Of a DNA stretch of 64,000 bases, positions 1,989-46,874 are shown in pieces. Each line of letters starts with the position of its first letter. Positions within the stretch are counted from its first letter, which is position 1. Origin of the DNA: Terriglobia bacterium (lineage in GTDB: Bacteria > Acidobacteriota > Terriglobia > Acidiferrales > UBA7541); assembly GCA_020072785.1 (NCBI GenBank), contig JAIQGG010000007.1:9995-73994 (forward strand), written 5' to 3'. The notes under the pieces were generated by a model that worked only from the letters and a program-made list of their open reading frames with translations, was not told where the DNA came from and ran no database searches. The translations under genes and the position numbers were made by a program.

Positions 1989-2630
1989 CTACGCCGCGCC
2001 CGCCGCCGCGCCCGGGCCCTCGCCCACCTTGAAGCGCACGAACCGCCGCACCGAAATGTTTTCCCCCAGCTTGGCAATCGCCTGGTTGATCAGCTCCGTG
2101 ATGCTCAGCGACTCGTCCTTGATGAAATGCTGCTCGTAGAGACAGTTCTCTTCGTAGAACTTCTCCATCTTCCCGGACACGATCTTCTCGATGATGGCCT
2201 CCGGCTTGCCCGTGGCCCGCGCCTGCTCGCGGTAGATCTCGCGCTCTTTCTCAAGCATCTCCGGCGTCACTTCCTCGCGCCGCACGTAGCGCGGATCCAG
2301 CGCCGCGATGTGCATGGCCACCTCGTGGCACAGGTGCTGGAAGGCCTCCGTGCGCGCCACGAAATCCGATTCGCAGTTCACTTCCACCAGCACGCCGATC
2401 TTCCCGCCCGCGTGGATGTAGCTGCCCACCAGGCCCTCGCTGGCCTCGCGCTGCGCCTTCTTGGCCGCCGCCGCCTGCCCCTTCTTGCGCAGCACGCTGA
2501 TGGCCTTCTCGAGGTCTCCACCGGCTTCCACCAGGGCCGCCCGGCAATCGCTGAATCCCGCGCTGGTGCGCTCGCGCAGCTCTTTCACCAGCTGTGCGGA
2601 TATTTGCGTCGCTTCCGGTTGAGTGCTCAT
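1989..2630 (-). CDS. tsf: elongation factor Ts (short ~210-aa form)
   Basis: N-terminal UBA-like [22 protein letters not shown] and [18 protein letters not shown]; follows rpsB as in most bacteria. Confidence 0.93.
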
Positions 2631-2796
2631 TCCTCTTCTTCTCTTTATCTCTGGAGTTGAAAACTTCCTGCCGCGGCCATCGGCCCGCGCGCCCGGTTTT
2701 CACGTCCGGCTTTTCGGGTTGATACAAACGGCCCGGCGCGTTTTTCGTTGCAACGCCGCCGGGCCTCGCGGTTTTTCCGGGAAAAGCGCGGAAGCT

Positions 2797-3708
2797 TTAG
2801 CTCTTTACTTCTTCGCTGGTCGGAACCGCGGCCGGGACTTCGGCTTCCGCAGCCGCCGGCGCTTCCGCGGCGCCTGCGCCGGCCCCTTCCACGGGGGCGC
2901 CTTCCACGAAGTCGCCTTCCTGCTTCTCGTACTGCTCGTAGGCGCTCGTGTCCACGTATTCCACCTGCTCGGCCAGGGCCTGGTCTTCCGCGGCCTTCTG
3001 CTCCGCCACCTGCGTCTGCTGGTAGGCGGCGTGGCCTTCGATCACCGACTCGGAAATCTTCGAGGTGAACAGGCGAATCGCGCGCAGCGCGTCGTCGTTC
3101 CCTGGGATGATCCAGTCCACCAGGTCGGGGTCGCAGTTGGTGTCCACCACGGACACCACCGGCACGCCCATCCGCCGCGCTTCCTTCACCGCGATCTCTT
3201 CCGCGTTGGAATCGATCACGAACATCGCATCGGGGATCTGCGTCATGTTCTCGATGCCTTCGAGATTCTGGAACAGGCTCTTCATCTCGCGTTCCAGCCG
3301 CGCCCGCTCTTTCTTCGACAACTGGTCCATGCGCCCGTCTTCGATCATGGCCTTCAGCAGCTTCAGCCGCTTGATGGACTTCTGCAGCGTCGCCCAGTTG
3401 GTCAGCGTCCCGCCCAGCCAGCGGTGGTTCACGAAGAACGCTCCGCAGCGCTTCGCCTCTTCGGCGACCGCTTCCTGGGCCTGGCGCTTGGTGCCTACAA
3501 ATAGAATGGTCCGGCCTTGTCCGGTCATTTCGCTCACGAAGCGGCTCGCTTCGCGGAACATCTTGAGGGTTTTCTGCAGGTCAATGATGTGGATGCCGTT
3601 GCGCTCGCCGAAAATGAATTCCTTCATCTTGGGGTTCCAGCGGCGGGTCTGGTGACCGAAATGTACTCCGGCCTCCAGCAACTCTTTCATCGTAATTTCA
3701 ACTGCCAA
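2797..3708 (-). CDS. rpsB: 30S ribosomal protein S2 with acidic/Ala-rich C-terminal extension
   Basis: [15 protein letters not shown] signature and full S2 core; ~60 extra C-terminal residues rich in A/E/Q. Confidence 0.95.
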
Positions 3709-3845
3709 TGTTCCTCCTTAGTGGATAGCCGTTTGCCCTGCGGCGCAAACACCGCCGCACTCGAACGGCCTCTTGCCGGCTCCTTGCCGGCCGTGATCTT
3801 GGCGGGGCCGCTTGCGCCGCCCCGCCAGAGCTCGTCAAAACCCGC

Positions 3846-4262
3846 TTAGCGCTTGGTGAACTGGAAGCGCTTCCGCGCGCCCTTCTGCCCGTACTTCTTG
3901 CGCTCCTTCATCCGCGAGTCGCGCGTCAAAAATCCGTTTTTGCGCAGCGCCGGCTGCAGCTCCGGATTGAACCGGATCAGCGCGCGCGACAGCCCCATGC
4001 GCACCGCTCCGGACTGCCCGCCCACGCCCCCGCCGTTCGCCGTCACCATCACGTCCACCTGGTCCTGCAGGCTGGTGAACTTCAGCGGTTCCGTCGCCGC
4101 GTGCTTCCAAGCGTGATTCGGGAAATACACTTCCGGCGTCTTTCCGTTCACCGTGAACTTCCCGGTACCCGGACGCAGGAACACGCGCGCCACCGATTCC
4201 TTGCGGCGGCCCGTCCCCAGAAACCATTTCACGCCCCCAAGGGGCGCTGCCGATGCACTCAC
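3846..4262 (-). CDS. rpsI: 30S ribosomal protein S9
   Basis: 138 aa, GTGRRKESVARV motif and the typical ...ARKRFQFTKR C-terminus; GTG start at 4262. Confidence 0.95.
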   Translation of the reverse strand: MSASAAPLGGVKWFLGTGRRKESVARVFLRPGTGKFTVNGKTPEVYFPNHAWKHAATEPLKFTSLQDQVDVMVTANGGGVGGQSGAVRMGLSRALIRFNPELQPALRKNGFLTRDSRMKERKKYGQKGARKRFQFTKR

Positions 4263-4281
4263 AACTCCTCCTCACGCCATT

Positions 4282-4309
4282 TCTATCTGTGACCGCAGAG
4301 CGGTCAACG
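4282..4309 (+). repeat. dispersed palindromic element, copy 1 (TCTATCTGTGACCGCAGAGCGGTCAACG)
   Basis: 7-3-7 palindrome TGACCGC-AGA-GCGGTCA with conserved 5' flank. Near-identical copies at 36903-36932 and 52021-52050. Lies in the unusually long (119 nt) rplM-rpsI spacer. Confidence 0.7.
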
Positions 4310-4381
4310 CGCTCGCGGGATTTCCTTCTCGGGAAGAAAACCACTACGTGCGGAAAAATTCGCGGGCCCCTTGCGGCCCCT

Positions 4382-4831
4382 TTATACCGCCAGCGGCTGC
4401 GGCTTCTGCCCGGCGTGCTTCGCCAGCCCGCTCGCGTCGCGGTACACGCGCAGCTTCTTGGCCCGCCGCGCCCGCAGCTTGTTCTTCGGCAGCATGCCCA
4501 GAATCGCTTCGCGCACCATCCAGTCGGCCTTCACCGGACGCAGCCTCTTCGCCGGCACTTCCTTCAGCCCTCCCGGATACCCGCTGTGGCTGTAATACAT
4601 CTTCTGCTCGACCTTGTTCCCGGTCATGCGGATCTTGTCCGCGTTGATCACCACCACGTGGTCGCCCGAGTCCAGATACGGCGTAAAGCTCGCCTTATCC
4701 TTCCCGATCAGCAGCCGCGCCACCTTCGTCGCCAGCCGCCCCAGCACCACGTTCGTGGCGTCCACCACAAACCAGTTCGCGCCCACTTTCAGCGCTTCCG
4801 CCTCTGCTCCCTTGGCTACGTACGTCCTCAT
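4382..4831 (-). CDS. rplM: 50S ribosomal protein L13
   Basis: 149 aa, WFVVDATNVVLGRLAT N-terminus typical of L13; rplM-rpsI gene order. Confidence 0.95.
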   Translation of the reverse strand: MRTYVAKGAEAEALKVGANWFVVDATNVVLGRLATKVARLLIGKDKASFTPYLDSGDHVVVINADKIRMTGNKVEQKMYYSHSGYPGGLKEVPAKRLRPVKADWMVREAILGMLPKNKLRARRAKKLRVYRDASGLAKHAGQKPQPLAV

Positions 4832-4870
4832 TGCGCTCAGTCACACCTTTCCCAGTAGAGACAAACAGCA

Positions 4871-4899
4871 ATCTTAGTGTATGTATCCCTTCCTGTCAA
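4871..4899 (-). promoter_or_regulatory. sigma70-type promoter of rplM-rpsI
   Basis: Minus strand reads TTGACA (4899-4894), a 17-nt spacer, then TAAGAT (4876-4871), about 40 nt upstream of the rplM ATG. Confidence 0.5.
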
Positions 4900-5178
4900 C
4901 GCACTTGCACTCCGCTCGCAGACATTCGGCCCCGCATTCGCGCAAGTAGCTGCTCTGCTAGCGGCGGCGCCATTTATCCCGCCCCGGCCGGGACGCTATC
5001 ACCTTCGCCGTCCGGCCACTCCTGTCCCTGAGACGCCCCTTCAGCAAGTGCCAACTGGCATTAGAGATAACGCTCGGGTAGAATCTCGCCGGGCGGAACT
5101 TCCGTCATTTCGCGGGAGCGCTTCGTGGCCAAACACAAACGACCAAAAGCACACACCGGTGCAAAATCCGGGAAACAC

Positions 5179-5244
5179 TCCTCCGGCGTTTGTCATCCCG
5201 AACACCCCTCCGGCGTTTGTCATCCCGAACGAACGTGAGGGATC
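5179..5244 (+). repeat. hairpin-type repeat (GTCATCCCGAACGAACGTGAGGGATC, 5219-5244) preceded by a 24-bp direct duplication of its left half
   Basis: CCTCCGGCGTTTGTCATCCCGAAC occurs twice (5180-5203 and 5207-5230). The full element ends 19 nt before the GIY-YIG ATG. Confidence 0.75.
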
Positions 5245-5262
5245 TGTTTTTGGGGCTTTAAC

Positions 5263-5769
5263 ATGGAACACACCTTTTCCGTCTACATCCTCGCCAGCCG
5301 CTCCCGCTCGCTCTACACCGGCGTAACCAACGACCTCGAGCGCCGAATGACCGAACACCGCCAAGGCGTTATCCCAGGCTTCACCACCCGTTATCGCGTC
5401 TTCCGGCTTGTCCACGTCGAACTTTTCGCTCACATCAATGACGCCATCGCCCGCGAGAAGGAAATCAAAGGCTGGCGCCGCGAAAAGAAAATCCATCTGA
5501 TCGAGCAGGGAAACCCGGTTTGGGAAGACCTCGCTGCCCGACTTCCGCACGCATATAAAAGTCAGAAGCTTCAAAGCAGATCCCTCACCCGTTCGGCAGA
5601 CCCGGACGAACGGATTCGGGATGACAACTCAAAGGACGGGGCGGACGGCATCGCGCATCACACCGCGCACGGCAACCCGGACAGCAAAAGCGACCGCAAG
5701 GCGGACAGCAAGGCACCCATGTCATTCCGAACGAAGTTAGGAATCTGCTTTTCTCTTAGACTCTCCTAG
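5263..5769 (+). CDS. GIY-YIG nuclease family protein (UPF0213/YhbQ-like), ~94-aa domain plus a repeat-derived read-through tail
   Basis: FSVYILASRSRSLYTGVTNDLERRMTEHRQG...AIAREKEIKGWRREKK is a canonical small GIY-YIG domain. Residues ~95-168 are translated from repeat DNA (tail ...MSFRTKLGICFSLRLS). Confidence 0.8.
   Translation: MEHTFSVYILASRSRSLYTGVTNDLERRMTEHRQGVIPGFTTRYRVFRLVHVELFAHINDAIAREKEIKGWRREKKIHLIEQGNPVWEDLAARLPHAYKSQKLQSRSLTRSADPDERIRDDNSKDGADGIAHHTAHGNPDSKSDRKADSKAPMSFRTKLGICFSLRLS
5579..5625 (-). repeat. inverted copy of the 5219-5244 element, split by a ~20-nt insert
   Basis: The reverse complement reads GTCATCCCGAA[tccgttcgtccgggtctgcc]GAACGGGTGAGGGATC. The insert forms its own 7-bp hairpin CCGTTCG/CGAACGG. 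Confidence 0.7.
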
Positions 5770-6147
5770 CCACCAAATCCATCGTCGCGCGTCACACCGG
5801 ACAGCAAAGGCGACCGCACGGCGGACAGCAACGCACCATGTCATTCCGAACGAAGTGAGGAATCTGCTTTTCTCTTAGCCTCTCATGGCCACCAAATCCA
5901 TCGTCGCGCGTCACACCGGACAGCAAGGGCGACAGCAGGGCGGACGGCAAGGCACCCATGTCATTCCGAACGAAGTGAGGAATCTGCTTTTCTCTTAGAC
6001 TCTCATCTGCATCCCGGATGCTGTCGCGGGCCGCGCCAAACGTTAGCCCAGCCCGTGCGGACTGGGAAAGATGTGCCTCCCTACACCCATGTCATTCCGA
6101 ACGGAGTGAGGAATCTGCTTTTCTCTTAGCCTCTCATCTGCGTCCCG
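5632..6147 (+). repeat. tandem array, 4 units of 119-131 bp, each with core CATGTCATTCCGAACGAAGTGAGGAATCTGCTTTTCTCTTAG
   Basis: Cores start at 5718, 5837, 5957 and 6088. Units 2 and 3 are near-identical over their whole length (CCACCAAATCCATCGTCGCGCGTCACACCGGACAGCAA...). Unit 4 has a different inter-core segment. Confidence 0.9.
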
Positions 6148-6197
6148 GCGTTCTTAACCAGGAAGCCCGCCTCCGGTCTCGTCTCTTGCCTTTGCCC

Positions 6198-6262
6198 GTC
6201 ATTTGCGCTTCTTGCATCCCGGACGGTTTTGCGGGACCGAACGAACGTGAGAAATCTCTCTT
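6198..6262 (+). repeat. degenerate split copy of the same repeat family
   Basis: GTCATT (6198-6203), a 33-nt insert, then CCGAACGAACGTGAGAAATC (6237-6256). Confidence 0.45.
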
Positions 6263-6332
6263 CCTCGACGCAAACCGTCCAACGCAGATGAAAAAAACTC
6301 ACTAAATTCCATGACTGCCAGTCTCAAAGTCG

Positions 6333-6360
6333 TTGACACGCGCCGCTGACTATCTAGATT
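6333..6360 (+). promoter_or_regulatory. sigma70-like promoter inside the low-GC islet
   Basis: TTGACA (6333-6338), a 16-nt spacer, then TAGATT (6355-6360). A second TATAAT lies at 6381-6386. Both are upstream of the 6401/6425 ORF. Confidence 0.4.
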
Positions 6361-6400
6361 AGTAGGATGCACTACAATGATATAATTCAGGCTTCAGAAA

Positions 6401-6799
6401 TTGAATCAGGAGACCTTTGCGTACATGGCAAGAACCAAACCGCTCGTGGCAGAAAAAAGGAATTATTTGGTTACTACGGTAGCGCAGGCAAAAGAGATCG
6501 CAATTTCGTGGCTTTCTGAAATAGAACTTTCTAACGTTACCTCTCTTGGACTACCCGAAGTAGATGATCGTTATCATATTTAGCGAGTACCAATTTGTAC
6601 TGCAACAGGAAGTATAAGAATTGGAGAAGCTGTTATTGATGCTTATACGACAGAGATACTGACAACCAAGACGACTAAAGCTCAAATGCTGGAGGCTCGT
6701 TTATTAAAAAAGGACGAGGTGCAATCGTCAAAACGGCAACCTAAAACAGAGTACCCAATCTCTCCCTTGCATGAGCGACTATCTTCGCGCAAGAATTAG
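6401..6799 (+). pseudogene. foreign-looking ORF of ~125-132 codons interrupted by one in-frame TAG (6581-6583)
   Basis: The same frame continues after the TAG: ...LGLPEVDDRYHI*RVPICTATGSIRIGEAVIDAYTTEIL...LHERLSSRKN, ending at TAG 6797-6799. About 40% GC; no family recognised with confidence. Confidence 0.4.
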
Positions 6800-7503
6800 C
6801 ACGATTGCAGTTCAAGATTTCTTATCTGGCCTCTCGACAGAAGATTTGATGAACTCGACTGCGGAGGAAGATGATTCTAATGAGTAGATTTTCCGGGACT
6901 GCCAGAGCGCTTCGCACCCTTCCGACAAGAAATTCGGCGGGTGGCTCAAGCTTAAATGACCCGGCAAGGTTGGAGTGCCCATTCCTGCGAAGCGCGTTTT
7001 TTGCGCCCCGGTTGGGTCTATGGGGCATGAGGGGGGGGGCTTTTTGCTGTTCTCCCCATCCTCGACCCCGCCCCGCCGCACCATTCGAAATATCACTAAT
7101 CCATATAGACTTTGAGTACATTCTGCGTTATAGTGTTTTTGCTTTTCAGCGCGGAGGAGACAGGACCTCGCCCCTTGTCCGTGCCACCGCTCGCCCCGCA
7201 ACACTCCTTCTCCCTCCCGCAACCCCTCCAGAATCACCACTTCCGCACTCTTTCGTACCAACGGAAATCTACACGACTTAAACTTCTTTCGTTTCATGCT
7301 CTTGCGCACTCTTTTGCACTGATTCGCACACAGCGCAACGCAACTTCCAATAAATCAATCTCTTGCGCACTCTTTGCTAAAAACACGGGGGGTGGGGGGT
7401 ACGTCCCCGCTTCGGAACTCCCGCTCGCCACTCGCCACTTGTCACTCGCCACTCAGCACATCACTCCTTACCGCTTCTTCCCCCGCGCCGGTTTTCGGAT
7501 ACA

Positions 7504-22136: not shown

Positions 22137-22354
22137 GCAAAGAGTTTGTGCGCCGTTCTTCGCCCGCTTTTTTTCCGCGCGGCTTCCTGTTTTGGACACA
22201 ACGCCGCGCCACGCGCCCGGTTGTGCTATTATTTTTGTTTGCGGGCTCCTGGTACTTCGCTCTCGAAGCACCTGCTCGCCGCGAAGCCCGGGCGCCGCAA
22301 CTCCTCACGCCGCATGCGGGGAGACATCAGCAACCAACGGGGTCACGCGTCACC

Positions 22355-24214
22355 ATGTCCACTCTCGCGGAAACACCTCTCACCAAAGGCAAGCGCGAAG
22401 TCATCGAACAGGCGGTCATCCGCTTTGCCGGGGACTCCGGCGACGGCATGCAGATCACCGGCAGCCAGTTCACCAACACCGTCGCGCTGTACGGCAACGA
22501 CATCGCCACCTTTCCGGACTACCCCGCGGAGATCCGCGCCCCTGCGGGCACCCTCCCCGGGGTCAGCGGCTACCAGCTGCATTTTTCCTCGAGCGAGGTG
22601 TACACGCCGGGCGATGCCGTGGATGTGCTCATCGCCATGAATCCCGCCGCGCTGAAAATGAACCAGGCCGACCTCAAGCCCAACGGGATCCTCATCGTCA
22701 ACAGCGACGCCTTCAAGGAAGGCGACCTGCGCAAGGCGCAGATGACCAGCAATCCCCTCGAGGATCATTCCCTGGACAAGTACCGCCTCTTCTCCGTAGA
22801 AGCCCAGCGCCTGACGCGCGCCGCGCTGCAGCATCTGGGCATCGACGCCAAGGCCATGGACCGCTGCAAGAACTTCTTCGCCCTGGGCATGTGCTATTGG
22901 CTTTACAACCGCTCCATGGATCCGACCTTCCGCTGGATCGACGACAAGTTCAGCAAGAAGCCGCTGATCGCGGAAGCCAACAAGCTGGCCCTCAAGGCCG
23001 GCTACAGCTACTGCGAAGCCACCGAAGCCTTCCAGGTCAGCTACGAAATTCCTCCGGCCAAGCTGGAGAAGGGCTTCTACCGCAGCCTGAGCGGCAACCA
23101 GGCCCTGGCCCTGGGTTTCGTCACCGCCGCGCAAAAATCCGGCCTAACGCTTTTCCTGGGCTCCTACCCGATCACTCCGGCCTCGGACATCCTGCACGAG
23201 CTTTCGCAATACAAGAATTTCGGGGTGATGACGTTCCAGGCCGAAGACGAAATCGCGGCCATGACTTCGACCATCGGGGCCTCTTACGCCGGCGCGCTGG
23301 CCCTGACCACGACTTCCGGCCCGGGCATGGCCCTCAAGACCGAAGCGATGGGGCTCGCCGTGATGACCGAGCTGCCCATGGTGATCGTGGACGTGCAGCG
23401 TGGCGGCCCTTCCACGGGCCTGCCGACCAAAACCGAGCAGGCCGACCTGTTGCAGGCGCTCTTCGGACGCAACTCCGAGGCGCCCATTCCGGTTCTGGCG
23501 GCTTCCACTCCGGCCGACTGCTTCTGGGTCGCCGTGGAAGCGTGCCGCATCGCCCTCAAGTACATGGTGCCGGTGATTGTGCTCACCGACGGCTACCTGG
23601 CTAACGGCTCGGAGCCCTGGCGCATCCCGGAGCTCCAGGACATTCCGGCCATCCCGGTGAGCTTCGCCACGAATCCGGAAACGTATCAGCCCTACAAGCG
23701 CGACCCGCAAACCCTGGCGCGCCCCTGGGCCGTGCCGGGCACGCCCGGCCTGGAACACCGCATCGGGGGCCTGGAGAAAAAAGACGGCAGCGGCAACATC
23801 AACTACGAGCCGCTCAACCACGAGAACATGGTGCGCATCCGCGCGGCCAAAGTCGCGGGCATCGTCCAGGACATTCCCGACGCCGTTCCCGCGGGGGATC
23901 CCGACGGCGACCTGCTGATCATCGGCTGGGGCTCGACGTGCGGCTCGATCACCGCGGCGCTCATGCCGCAGCGCGCCAAGGGCCGGCGCATCGGCCACGT
24001 GCATCTGCGGCACCTGAACCCGCTGCCGAAGAACCTCGGGGATGTGATGAAGCGCTACAAGAAAGTGCTCGTTCCGGAGCTGAACATGGGCCAACTGCTG
24101 TGGGTCTTGCGCGCCAAGTATCTGGTGGACGCCATCGGCATGAACAAGATCCAGGGCCGCCCGTTCAAGCAGAACGAGCTGGAAGTGAAGATCGAAGAAG
24201 TAATCGGCGCCTAA
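22355..24214 (+). CDS. korA: 2-oxoglutarate/2-oxoacid:ferredoxin oxidoreductase, alpha subunit
   Basis: 619 aa from the ATG at 22355 (FAGDSGDGMQITG..., YPITPASDILHEL, large-subunit architecture). The track ORF start at 22148 adds an implausible leader. Confidence 0.9.
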   Translation: MSTLAETPLTKGKREVIEQAVIRFAGDSGDGMQITGSQFTNTVALYGNDIATFPDYPAEIRAPAGTLPGVSGYQLHFSSSEVYTPGDAVDVLIAMNPAALKMNQADLKPNGILIVNSDAFKEGDLRKAQMTSNPLEDHSLDKYRLFSVEAQRLTRAALQHLGIDAKAMDRCKNFFALGMCYWLYNRSMDPTFRWIDDKFSKKPLIAEANKLALKAGYSYCEATEAFQVSYEIPPAKLEKGFYRSLSGNQALALGFVTAAQKSGLTLFLGSYPITPASDILHELSQYKNFGVMTFQAEDEIAAMTSTIGASYAGALALTTTSGPGMALKTEAMGLAVMTELPMVIVDVQRGGPSTGLPTKTEQADLLQALFGRNSEAPIPVLAASTPADCFWVAVEACRIALKYMVPVIVLTDGYLANGSEPWRIPELQDIPAIPVSFATNPETYQPYKRDPQTLARPWAVPGTPGLEHRIGGLEKKDGSGNINYEPLNHENMVRIRAAKVAGIVQDIPDAVPAGDPDGDLLIIGWGSTCGSITAALMPQRAKGRRIGHVHLRHLNPLPKNLGDVMKRYKKVLVPELNMGQLLWVLRAKYLVDAIGMNKIQGRPFKQNELEVKIEEVIGA

Positions 24215-46833: not shown

Positions 46834-46874
46834 AAGAGAAAAGCAGATTCCTCGCTTCGCTCGGAATGACACTG
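46834..46874 (-). repeat. isolated copy of the GIY-YIG-associated repeat (reverse orientation) in the ileS-lspA spacer
   Basis: The reverse complement CAGTGTCATTCCGAGCGAAGCGAGGAATCTGCTTTTCTCTT matches the array core at about 37/41 positions (hand alignment). Confidence 0.75.

Follow-up and report, generated by a model that had tools for sequence, protein, structure and literature searches.

Small nuclease genes flanked by inverted copies of a hairpin repeat raise the question of whether they belong to a repeat-associated system that is already known or to one that has escaped description. We address this question for a locus in a 64,000-nt stretch of DNA (hereafter, the window) from a Terriglobia bacterium (GTDB UBA7541; contig JAIQGG010000007.1, positions 9,995-73,994 of the forward strand), in which a GIY-YIG nuclease gene at 5263-5769 lies between inverted hairpins and is followed by a tandem array of related repeats. 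A sequence-only reading of the window had compared this layout with the REPtrons of repetitive extragenic palindromes (REP) and their associated tyrosine transposases (RAYT), and had proposed that it represents an undescribed repeat-propagating system built around a UPF0213/YhbQ-like enzyme. Our analyses lead us to conclude, with a probability of about 0.82, that the locus is an Ssn-SRM locus, i.e., that it comprises a ~95-aa single-domain GIY-YIG endonuclease of the Ssn family together with the hairpin motif that such enzymes recognise. It is a new acidobacterial example of the system published by Chenal et al. (2025, Nat Commun 16:2388; PMC11893778), and not an undescribed one. What is new here is modest: a hairpin variant with a G·A internal loop, directional half-hairpin scars, and results that point to mobility of the cassette.

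The identification came through Neisseria. Literature searches that linked GIY-YIG proteins to REP, miniature inverted-repeat transposable elements (MITE), hairpin repeats, Acidobacteria, YhbQ, or UPF0213 yielded nothing relevant before the link to dRS3 repeats was made: a neisserial homologue of the window protein is surrounded by dRS3/NTS repeats (CGTCATTCCCGCGCAGGCGGGAATC copies), which at that locus also form inverted pairs, and this position among dRS3 repeats led us to the Ssn identity of the window locus. Chenal et al. (2025) described the Ssn nuclease family and its Ssn-related motifs (SRM/NTS); we found no follow-up papers to their work. N. meningitidis SsnA is a 94-aa single-domain GIY-YIG protein (Conserved Domain Database cd10448, GIY-YIG_unchar_3) that binds the oriented NTS hairpin solely as single-stranded DNA (ssDNA), on one strand only, and cleaves a few nucleotides upstream of the hairpin without acting on double-stranded DNA (dsDNA) or RNA; mutation of Y6, Y17, and E64 abolishes cleavage (PMC11893778). 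Four enzymes (from N. meningitidis, N. elongata, N. wadsworthii, and Wolbachia pipientis) have been characterised, each on its own repeats, and the C right 3' of the palindrome was found to be critical for binding and the three nucleotides 5' for cleavage (PMC11893778). At least one SRM lies near 71% of SsnA homologues and SRM lie on both sides of 42%, 81% of the genomes with more than 200 SRMs encode an SsnA homologue, and pathogenic Neisseria carry hundreds of gene-flanking repeat copies (PMC11893778). Moreover, knockout of ssnA increased transformation by NTS-bearing DNA about 5-fold, an effect abolished when the NTS were mutated, and in their discussion the authors likened the NTS-ssnA-NTS arrangement to an insertion sequence (IS), to IS200/IS605, and to REP/RAYT, thereby raising a hypothesis of IS-like mobility (PMC11893778). 

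The window protein carries the first part of the evidence. Its open reading frame (ORF; 5263-5769, 168 aa) has the GIY-YIG domain PF01541 as its sole Pfam match (aa 6-76, E 1.3e-14) and 4754 homologues at E up to 0.001. In homologues, conservation stops at about aa 95. The conserved core (aa 1-95; 5263-5547, + strand) is a single-domain GIY-YIG protein which we assign to the Ssn family by its Pfam match, SsnA homology, and codon differences, while the remaining 73-aa tail (5548-5769, + strand) is encoded by repeat DNA and is unconserved as protein. The homologues end at different lengths (105-207 aa), and their tails derive from one DNA motif read in different frames (QSRSLTRS..RIRDD vs QNQIPPRS..RVRDD); it is therefore the inverted hairpin, and not the peptide, that is conserved, and the reading of this coding sequence as running through repeat DNA to 168 aa was correct. 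In a BLASTP comparison with the translated N. gonorrhoeae ssnA orthologue (taken from L110:1501-1773 of a gonococcal record), the window protein showed 50% identity over 86 aa with E 8e-27, well within the E < 1e-10 by which SsnA homologues were defined (PMC11893778); the N. gonorrhoeae homologue was also found by tblastn of plasmid records (E 3e-17). Residues Y8, Y18, and E65 of the window protein align with the mutated neisserial residues Y6, Y17, and E64, and among 20 homologues Y8 and E65 are invariant and Y18 is conserved in at least 90%. Codon comparison with the orthologous rplM-adjacent locus of a related metagenome-assembled genome (L091; ribosomal protein genes 95.6% identical) gave 12 synonymous and 3 non-synonymous differences within the core, which, to judge from these changes, is under purifying selection.

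The label UPF0213/YhbQ-like proved imprecise. E. coli YhbQ aligns with the window protein at 41% identity over 29 aa only, as against 50% over 86 aa for the SsnA orthologue, and yhbQ has no flanking hairpins; on these alignments the window protein is clearly closer to SsnA than to YhbQ. With the UPF0213/YhbQ and Slx1-type stand-alone GIY-YIG proteins (1zg2, 1ywl, BH0048) it has the minimal GIY-YIG fold in common, and it belongs to their superfamily, but the similarity is weak, the nearest solved structures by sequence being PDB 1zg2 (E 2.4e-8) and 1ywl (E 1.7e-5). An earlier classification placed stand-alone bacterial proteins of this kind in the Slx1 family and left repeats unmentioned (Dunin-Horkawicz, 2006). 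The NCBIfam and PADLOC protein libraries gave no matches, and the GIY-YIG genes in phage records were all distant (35-40% identity).

The second part of the evidence is the layout, which is that of the Ssn loci. Oriented hairpins lie on both sides of the core, at 5219-5244 (+) and 5579-5625 (-), where + denotes the strand reading GTCAT-stem...stem-ATC; the bracketing of the nuclease by inverted copies of one element, as seen in the sequence-only reading, is thereby confirmed, and the other elements which that reading named are likewise found at its coordinates or a few bases from them. The left hairpin, GTCATCCCGAACGAACGTGAGGGATC, is a short form situated 19 nt before the ATG and consists of GTCAT, then ATCCC / GA / AC-GAAC-GT / GA / GGGAT, then C; with its tail TGTTTT, which ends 12 nt before the ATG, the feature extends over 5219-5250. 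The right hairpin overlaps ORF codons 106-121. It is indeed an inverted copy. Rather than being split by an insert, however, it belongs to the long-stem forms of the family, with a 5-bp base, a GA/GA internal loop, and a longer distal helix (9 further pairs in the fold) that includes the 7-bp CCGTTCG/CGAACGG (fold -10.3 kcal/mol, z -1.9). The arms at 5235-5250 and 5573-5588 are 94% complementary. The positions critical in the work of Chenal et al. are kept, namely the C after the palindrome and the GTC before it. Long-range pairing between the two flanking hairpins was considered and rejected: the distal stems of such pairs differ within a locus, and the local hairpins keep their own compensatory pairs.

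The same layout recurs far beyond this genome. We sampled 80 homologous loci, drawn from contigs at one genome per species, from Acidobacteriota, Gemmatimonadota, Verrucomicrobiota, Planctomycetota, Chloroflexota, Nitrospinota, Patescibacteria, Armatimonadota, Proteobacteria, Firmicutes, and Synergistota. A (+) hairpin lies within 200 nt upstream of the start in 59/80 loci, an inverted hairpin at the 3' end in 69/80, and both in 54/80, and the REPtron-like layout was thus found again in other homologues. By position, the hits peak at 77 and 92 in a 200-nt bin, compared with roughly 1-5 in the other bins. A strict hairpin detector gave 253 hits in total over 761 kb of loci, 197 of them within 400 nt of an ssn ORF and 56 elsewhere. 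Hairpin doublets that lack a gene, i.e., a (+) hairpin, 13-33 nt, and a (-) hairpin, occur in L011, L098, L102, and L107. The homologue of Azospirillum is flanked on both sides by inverted pairs (doublets) of NTS-like repeats. Some loci have gone further in copy number: in the 10-kb locus of Nitrospina sp. LS_NOB (L070), one ssn gene is surrounded by about 30 or more hairpins, which lie in either orientation and fall into three subtypes (24-nt, 30-nt, and 47-nt forms), and L077 has three ssn matches in tandem. At L004:4368-4390 a short-form hairpin lies within a called type III methyltransferase ORF (2033-4750) whose frame is intact, and this may be an in-frame insertion of the repeat into coding sequence.

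The hairpin of these loci has an anatomy of its own. Its short form reads GTCAT, a core ATYCY / GA / RC-GNA-GY / GA / RGRAT, and then C. When the core folds, a base stem of 5 bp (ATYCY/RGRAT) is followed by a symmetric tandem G·A internal loop and then by a 2-bp helix that ends in a triloop. The distal helix ranges between GC-GAA-GC and about 10 bp; homologues commonly have long-stem forms, and in 164 distinct hairpins from related loci the inner lengths cluster at 7-8, 13-18, and 25-31 nt. The base stem covaries, which supports the hairpin: ATCCC/GGGAT was found 80 times, ATTCC/GGAAT 29, ATCCT/AGGAT 23, and ATTCT/AGAAT 20, with 12 other combinations, of which 8 are ATCAC with GGGAT. In an alignment of 56 short forms, 97.7% of the cells pair. 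Pair 13-19, which the detector leaves free, occurs as GC in 32 sequences and as AU in 20. All 56 have C at column 27, directly 3' of the palindrome, where the detector allows C or T. The GTC that precedes the palindrome is conserved in at least 90% of sequences or invariant, its T and C being required by the detector and only the G (at least 90%) being unconstrained. The published SRM search sequence, HGTCWYN(0-2)YYVSBRHN(0-5)WNVSBRGN(0-2)RNCYNB, matches the Neisseria and Azospirillum repeats and fails on the present class because it requires S where the GA/GA internal loop sits. Built from 29 genomes, this pattern serves for searching and does not define the family; we therefore file the repeat as an SRM variant. 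Searches of Rfam returned no family at the gathering threshold over the whole window, and, at E up to 10 over the locus region, just a sub-threshold match to Acido-Lenti-1, which is not the repeat.

Several observations weigh against the assignment to Ssn/SRM and account for the reserve with which we state it. The published pattern has 0 sites in the window, overlaps 0/253 strict hairpin hits, and finds sites near 2/80 loci only; the hairpin differs from all substrates used by Chenal et al., and the rules of binding and cutting may consequently differ. The gonococcal sequence of our comparison is a proxy for N. meningitidis NMV_0044 and comes from a copy without an in-frame ATG, and membership of the window protein in cd10448 is likewise a presumption from homology. 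Binding and cutting by the window protein are predicted by analogy with its characterised relatives. One enzyme may not serve both the ATCCC subtype, to which the gene-flanking copies belong, and the ATTCC subtype of the array and the solitary copy described below. Finally, nearest-neighbour DNA folding rated the short hairpins no more stable than shuffled sequences (z about 0.2 to 0.5, at energies of -1.7 to -2.4 kcal/mol) and failed to distinguish their strands; its parameters may give too little weight to GNA loops and to tandem G·A pairs. As to the gonococcal copy itself (L110 1486-1776), which PLSDB leaves unannotated, no in-frame ATG precedes its conserved region; the gene may have become a pseudogene or may start at a codon other than ATG in that strain.

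Set beside known systems, the window locus resembles Ssn/SRM most closely. It shares with the latter the ~94-aa single domain, the catalytic Tyr/Tyr/Glu, the inverted hairpins with GTCAT...ATC tags, and further copies both dispersed and clustered in the genome. It differs in its tandem G·A loop and variable distal stem, where the published motif has a perfect ATTCCCGC/GCGGGAAT stem, in its acidobacterial host, a phylum that the main text of PMC11893778 does not name, and in its half-hairpin tandem scars and long flank duplications, the words tandem and duplication being absent from that main text. The dRS3 repeats and intergenic mosaic elements (NIMEs) of Neisseria belong to the same repeat superfamily, in which repeats cluster with intervening repeated units, but differ in stem sequence, in architecture, and in number (hundreds of copies there, far fewer in the window). 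REP/RAYT REPtrons and REPINs (TnpA_REP; Nunvar, 2010; Bertels and Rainey, 2011; Ton-Hoang, 2012) likewise place a nuclease gene between inverted hairpin repeats and have doublets, dispersed copies, and recognition of ssDNA hairpins, the last of which is assumed for the window enzyme by homology; there, however, an HUH Y1 transposase cleaves and rejoins, whereas here the enzyme is a GIY-YIG hydrolase, and the tag is GTAG or CGTC in REP (from the title of PMC3733652) and GTCAT here. None of the top-ranked papers in our search of the REP/RAYT/REPIN literature mentions GIY-YIG, and the window locus is REPtron-like in layout but is not a member of the REPtrons. With IS200/IS605 (TnpA) the locus has in common subterminal ssDNA hairpins, strand-specific recognition, and cleavage beside the hairpin, as shown for the Ssn relatives; it differs in that both hairpins of IS200/IS605 lie on one strand while those of the window are inverted, in the HUH transposase of the former, and in that no circular ssDNA intermediate is known for Ssn.

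Within the window, the repeats extend well beyond the pair that flanks the gene. Upstream, two tandem 27-nt units (AACACYCCTCCGGCGTTTGTCATCCCG; 5174-5200 and 5201-5227, together 5174-5227, + strand) each join upstream flank to a 5' half-hairpin; they are 96% identical (Tandem Repeats Finder, TRF: period 27, 2.1 copies), which agrees with the duplication of the left half noticed before, and the complete hairpin follows as the last unit. Downstream, as had been described, four tandem units occupy 5666-6135 (+) at start-to-start spacings of 119, 120, and 131 nt, each with GTCATTCCGAACGAAGTGAGGAATCTGCTTTTCTCTTAG, a short-form (+) hairpin of the ATTCC/GGAAT subtype (5721-5745, 5840-5864, 5960-5984, and 6091-6115), and the tail CTGCTTTTCTCTTAG; the array was recovered by repeat search and by TRF, which scored the first 2.8 units (5677-6006) at 576, and its 35-nt hairpin recurs in 17 metagenome contigs in several contexts. 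The array units hold the start of a type III restriction res gene (ATGGCCACCAAATCCATCG at 5885-5903, +, with a mutated copy near 5765): the same 19 nt are the first of res and open intact or truncated res-like ORFs straight after a hairpin in L004, L097, and L100, and versions that diverge more are present in L092 and L099. The array is therefore a relic of a mod-ssn-res arrangement. A further degenerate composite copy, which had also been pointed out, lies at 6213-6262 (+; 85% repeat-family match) and consists of the 5' half-site GCATCCCGGAC, a 17-nt insert, and CCGAACGAACGTGAGAAATC; L091 has two such composites.

The family is not confined to the locus. A degenerate-motif search found a solitary short-form hairpin, GTCATTCCGAGCGAAGCGAGGAATC, between ileS and lspA at 46846-46870 (-), 41 kb away, in the same orientation as these two genes and ending 23 nt short of the lspA start codon; a (+) hairpin lies similarly near the res start in L004. 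Since this match is far from the array, the repeat is dispersed as well as clustered. Just past the stop of the ORF at 22148-24214, the segment 24224-24296 (+), with GCCATTCCGAG...GAGGAATC followed by inverted CTCCGGAATGGCA, is probably a decayed hairpin doublet, a weak assignment because its 5' tag is GCCAT and not GTCAT. Chance does not account for these repeats: with up to 3 mismatches allowed, the 25-nt degenerate motif occurs 5 times in the window, where 100 shuffles predict 0.00, and the 12-mer GTGAGGRATCTG has 7 matches against 0.41 expected.

Two other elements adjoin the array. On the - strand at 6025-6066, a full-length match to Acido-Lenti-1 (RF01687) scores 25.8 bits, below the gathering threshold of 37; it has both helices and the GGCUAA linker and takes the place of the usual spacer in the fourth array unit, and the same module is present at L091:4753-4842 and upstream of the hairpin in L108. 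The AT-rich island at 6287-7000 (GC 0.40-0.43 vs about 0.56-0.69 in the flanks) begins exactly where synteny with L091 ends (6286), and it contains a 124-codon ORF (6437-6799) with an in-frame TAG at 6581 and no Pfam match, while positions 6333-6360 match a sigma-70-like promoter; this neighbour of the repeat array resembles DNA that is foreign or in decay.

What the system does in this lineage is a separate question from its molecular identity, and comparisons of cassettes bear on it. A related cassette, L090, is 88% identical to window positions 5179-5674 (BLAST; weaker similarity continues to about 5765) in an unrelated genomic context, and it carries the same two 27-nt units. At the orthologous L091 locus there are three 27-nt units instead of two, the 3' hairpin and tail are a different allele with homology breaking at 5508, and the array differs from that of the window in unit number and order. 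Elsewhere, cassettes separate type III mod from res, an MmeI-like gene from drmA (in Planktothrix), and sufB from sufC in Azospirillum lipoferum 4B, where plasmid AZO_p3 (L111, 1370-1986) carries ssn with one hairpin doublet per side in about 590 nt. Comparison with L113, L114, and L115 showed that the last insertion is missing from A. ramasamyi, Azospirillum sp. B510, and A. brasilense, with matched flanks 90-97% identical. Irregular direct duplications (27 to about 200 nt) of the 3' end of the neighbouring host gene often bracket insertions; a short fixed target-site duplication was sought at them, and only these irregular flank duplications were seen. To judge from these comparisons, the cassette is probably a mobile or recombinogenic unit.

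The small duplications have a direction. Orphan 5' half-hairpins in tandem were found in 26 cases in 16 loci and tandem orphan 3' halves in 0, and orphan halves overall are equally common (188 for 5' vs 184 for 3'). The resulting scar consists of tandem 18-27-nt units of upstream flank plus 5' half-hairpin in which the complete hairpin always comes last, as at window positions 5174-5244, in L081, and at L112:1190-1260 and 1840-1905, and, by eye, at L091:3885-3982 and L009:3889-3967; the lineages include Acidobacteriota, Cyanobacteria, Nitrospinota, Armatimonadota, and others. Scar and flank duplications fit breakage or fork stalling 5' of the hairpin, the side on which Ssn cuts; hairpin-induced slippage without a nuclease would also explain both.

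If the window protein behaves as its four characterised relatives do, it would bind the hairpin only in ssDNA and only on the GTCAT...ATC strand, and would cut that strand a few nucleotides 5' of the hairpin, and neither dsDNA, RNA, nor the complementary strand would be a substrate. Since the bracketing hairpins are inverted, the predicted cuts lie outside the unit, one per strand, and the downstream array and the solitary copy would offer further sites. Over time, the cassette would move or be exchanged, and DNA beside hairpins would gather tandem duplications.

As for the biological role, the explanation that survives best is that of a selfish element, which is compatible with the Ssn identity of the enzyme: hairpin-ssn-hairpin would be an autonomous IS-like unit whose ends are cleaved in ssDNA to drive its copying to intergenic sites, and the doublets and single hairpins would be non-autonomous MITE/REPIN-like derivatives. 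We regard it as possible, yet on balance doubtful. The layout, like terminal inverted repeats with predicted cuts outside both ends, speaks for it, as do the 88% identical cassette in an unrelated context, the cassettes inside mod-res, sufB-sufC, and DISARM operons, the presence/absence polymorphism among Azospirillum species, the gene-less doublets, and the massive repeat expansion in Nitrospina along with the three tandem ssn matches of L077; the same hypothesis was raised in PMC11893778. On the other hand, neither strand transfer nor rejoining is known for a GIY-YIG hydrolase, and the element would therefore have to rely on a second activity or on repair by the host; the flank duplications are long and irregular, with no short fixed target-site duplication; the DNA shared by the window and L090 runs past the hairpins on both sides; and the sufB-sufC comparison cannot separate gain from loss. 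The proposal of a repeat-propagating system is unsupported, what has been demonstrated being strand-specific cleavage of ssDNA upstream of the hairpin and reduced transformation of Neisseria by repeat-bearing DNA.

A function that serves the host, in which the enzyme cuts incoming or exposed hairpin-bearing ssDNA and so restricts it or controls recombination as in Neisseria, ranks next and is rather unlikely in our view. It is the sole role demonstrated by experiment for a member of the family, through the about 5-fold effect of the ssnA knockout; purifying selection on the ssn core agrees with it, and several cassettes adjoin type III restriction-modification, DISARM, and Z1/SNF2 genes. However, this acidobacterial lineage is not known to be naturally competent, PADLOC gave no match, and the window repeats cluster at ssn: the other roughly 62 kb hold a single clear solitary copy, whereas in pathogenic Neisseria gene-flanking copies number in the hundreds. 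The selfish and the host-serving role may also be combined.

A bolder version of the selfish-element explanation holds that the hairpins with a GA loop and variable stem, together with their Ssn clade, form an actively mobile, ssDNA-dependent element in which 5' cutting at exposed single strands triggers copying of the cassette into operon spacers and gives rise to the gene-less doublets and directional duplications. We consider this speculative and unlikely; if it were true, we know of no earlier case in which a GIY-YIG hydrolase mobilises a bacterial DNA element.

It is improbable that ssn is a parasite like a homing endonuclease, inserted between the two arms of an older and independent hairpin doublet. 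Gene-less doublets do share the tail-to-tail orientation of the gene-flanking pair, and the cassettes do lie in operon intergenic spacers, where free-standing phage homing endonuclease genes likewise sit; the GIY-YIG homing endonucleases (I-TevI, I-BmoI, phage Seg) also resemble the window gene in their catalytic domain and small intergenic cassette. They differ, however, in having a C-terminal DNA-binding domain, as no second domain is present in the window protein, and in cutting duplex targets, whereas the characterised Ssn relatives cut ssDNA. Against the homing reading, the hairpins that the characterised enzymes bind are intact and the cut falls next to them, not between two arms, and the window protein has no separate DNA-binding domain; in addition, hairpin sequence and protein are conserved together across phyla, and the Azospirillum gene has a complete doublet on each side and not two halves of one. 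Lastly, it is hardly credible that the hairpins are ordinary transcription terminators or RNA regulatory elements incidental to the nuclease gene: acidobacterial (+) copies carry a T-rich tail (CTGCTTTTCTC) and are often found directly behind stop codons or about 20 nt ahead of start codons, but the tail is absent in other phyla, a consensus scan found 0 terminator-like sites in 4800-6500 vs 2.0 expected from shuffles, no Rfam family reached its gathering threshold, the 3' hairpin is, by its conserved GA/GA orientation, antisense to the ssn mRNA, RNA is not bound by the Neisseria enzyme (PMC11893778), and the GTCAT and ATC flanking tags are conserved across phyla, which points to recognition by a protein.

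The main value of our analysis is hence a correction, as a candidate for an undescribed system belongs to Ssn/SRM, published in March 2025. Beyond that, the published SRM pattern misses a cognate hairpin class that accompanies Ssn homologues in at least ten phyla; the reported 71% SRM association is therefore probably an underestimate, and the GA-loop class offers more enzyme-site pairs for ssDNA tools. The near-identical cassettes, the operon insertions, and the comparison of occupied and empty sites in Azospirillum lend concrete support to the hypothesis of IS-like mobility, and the directional scar on the cutting side of the enzyme provides a sequence-level handle on the action of the nuclease on its own genome.

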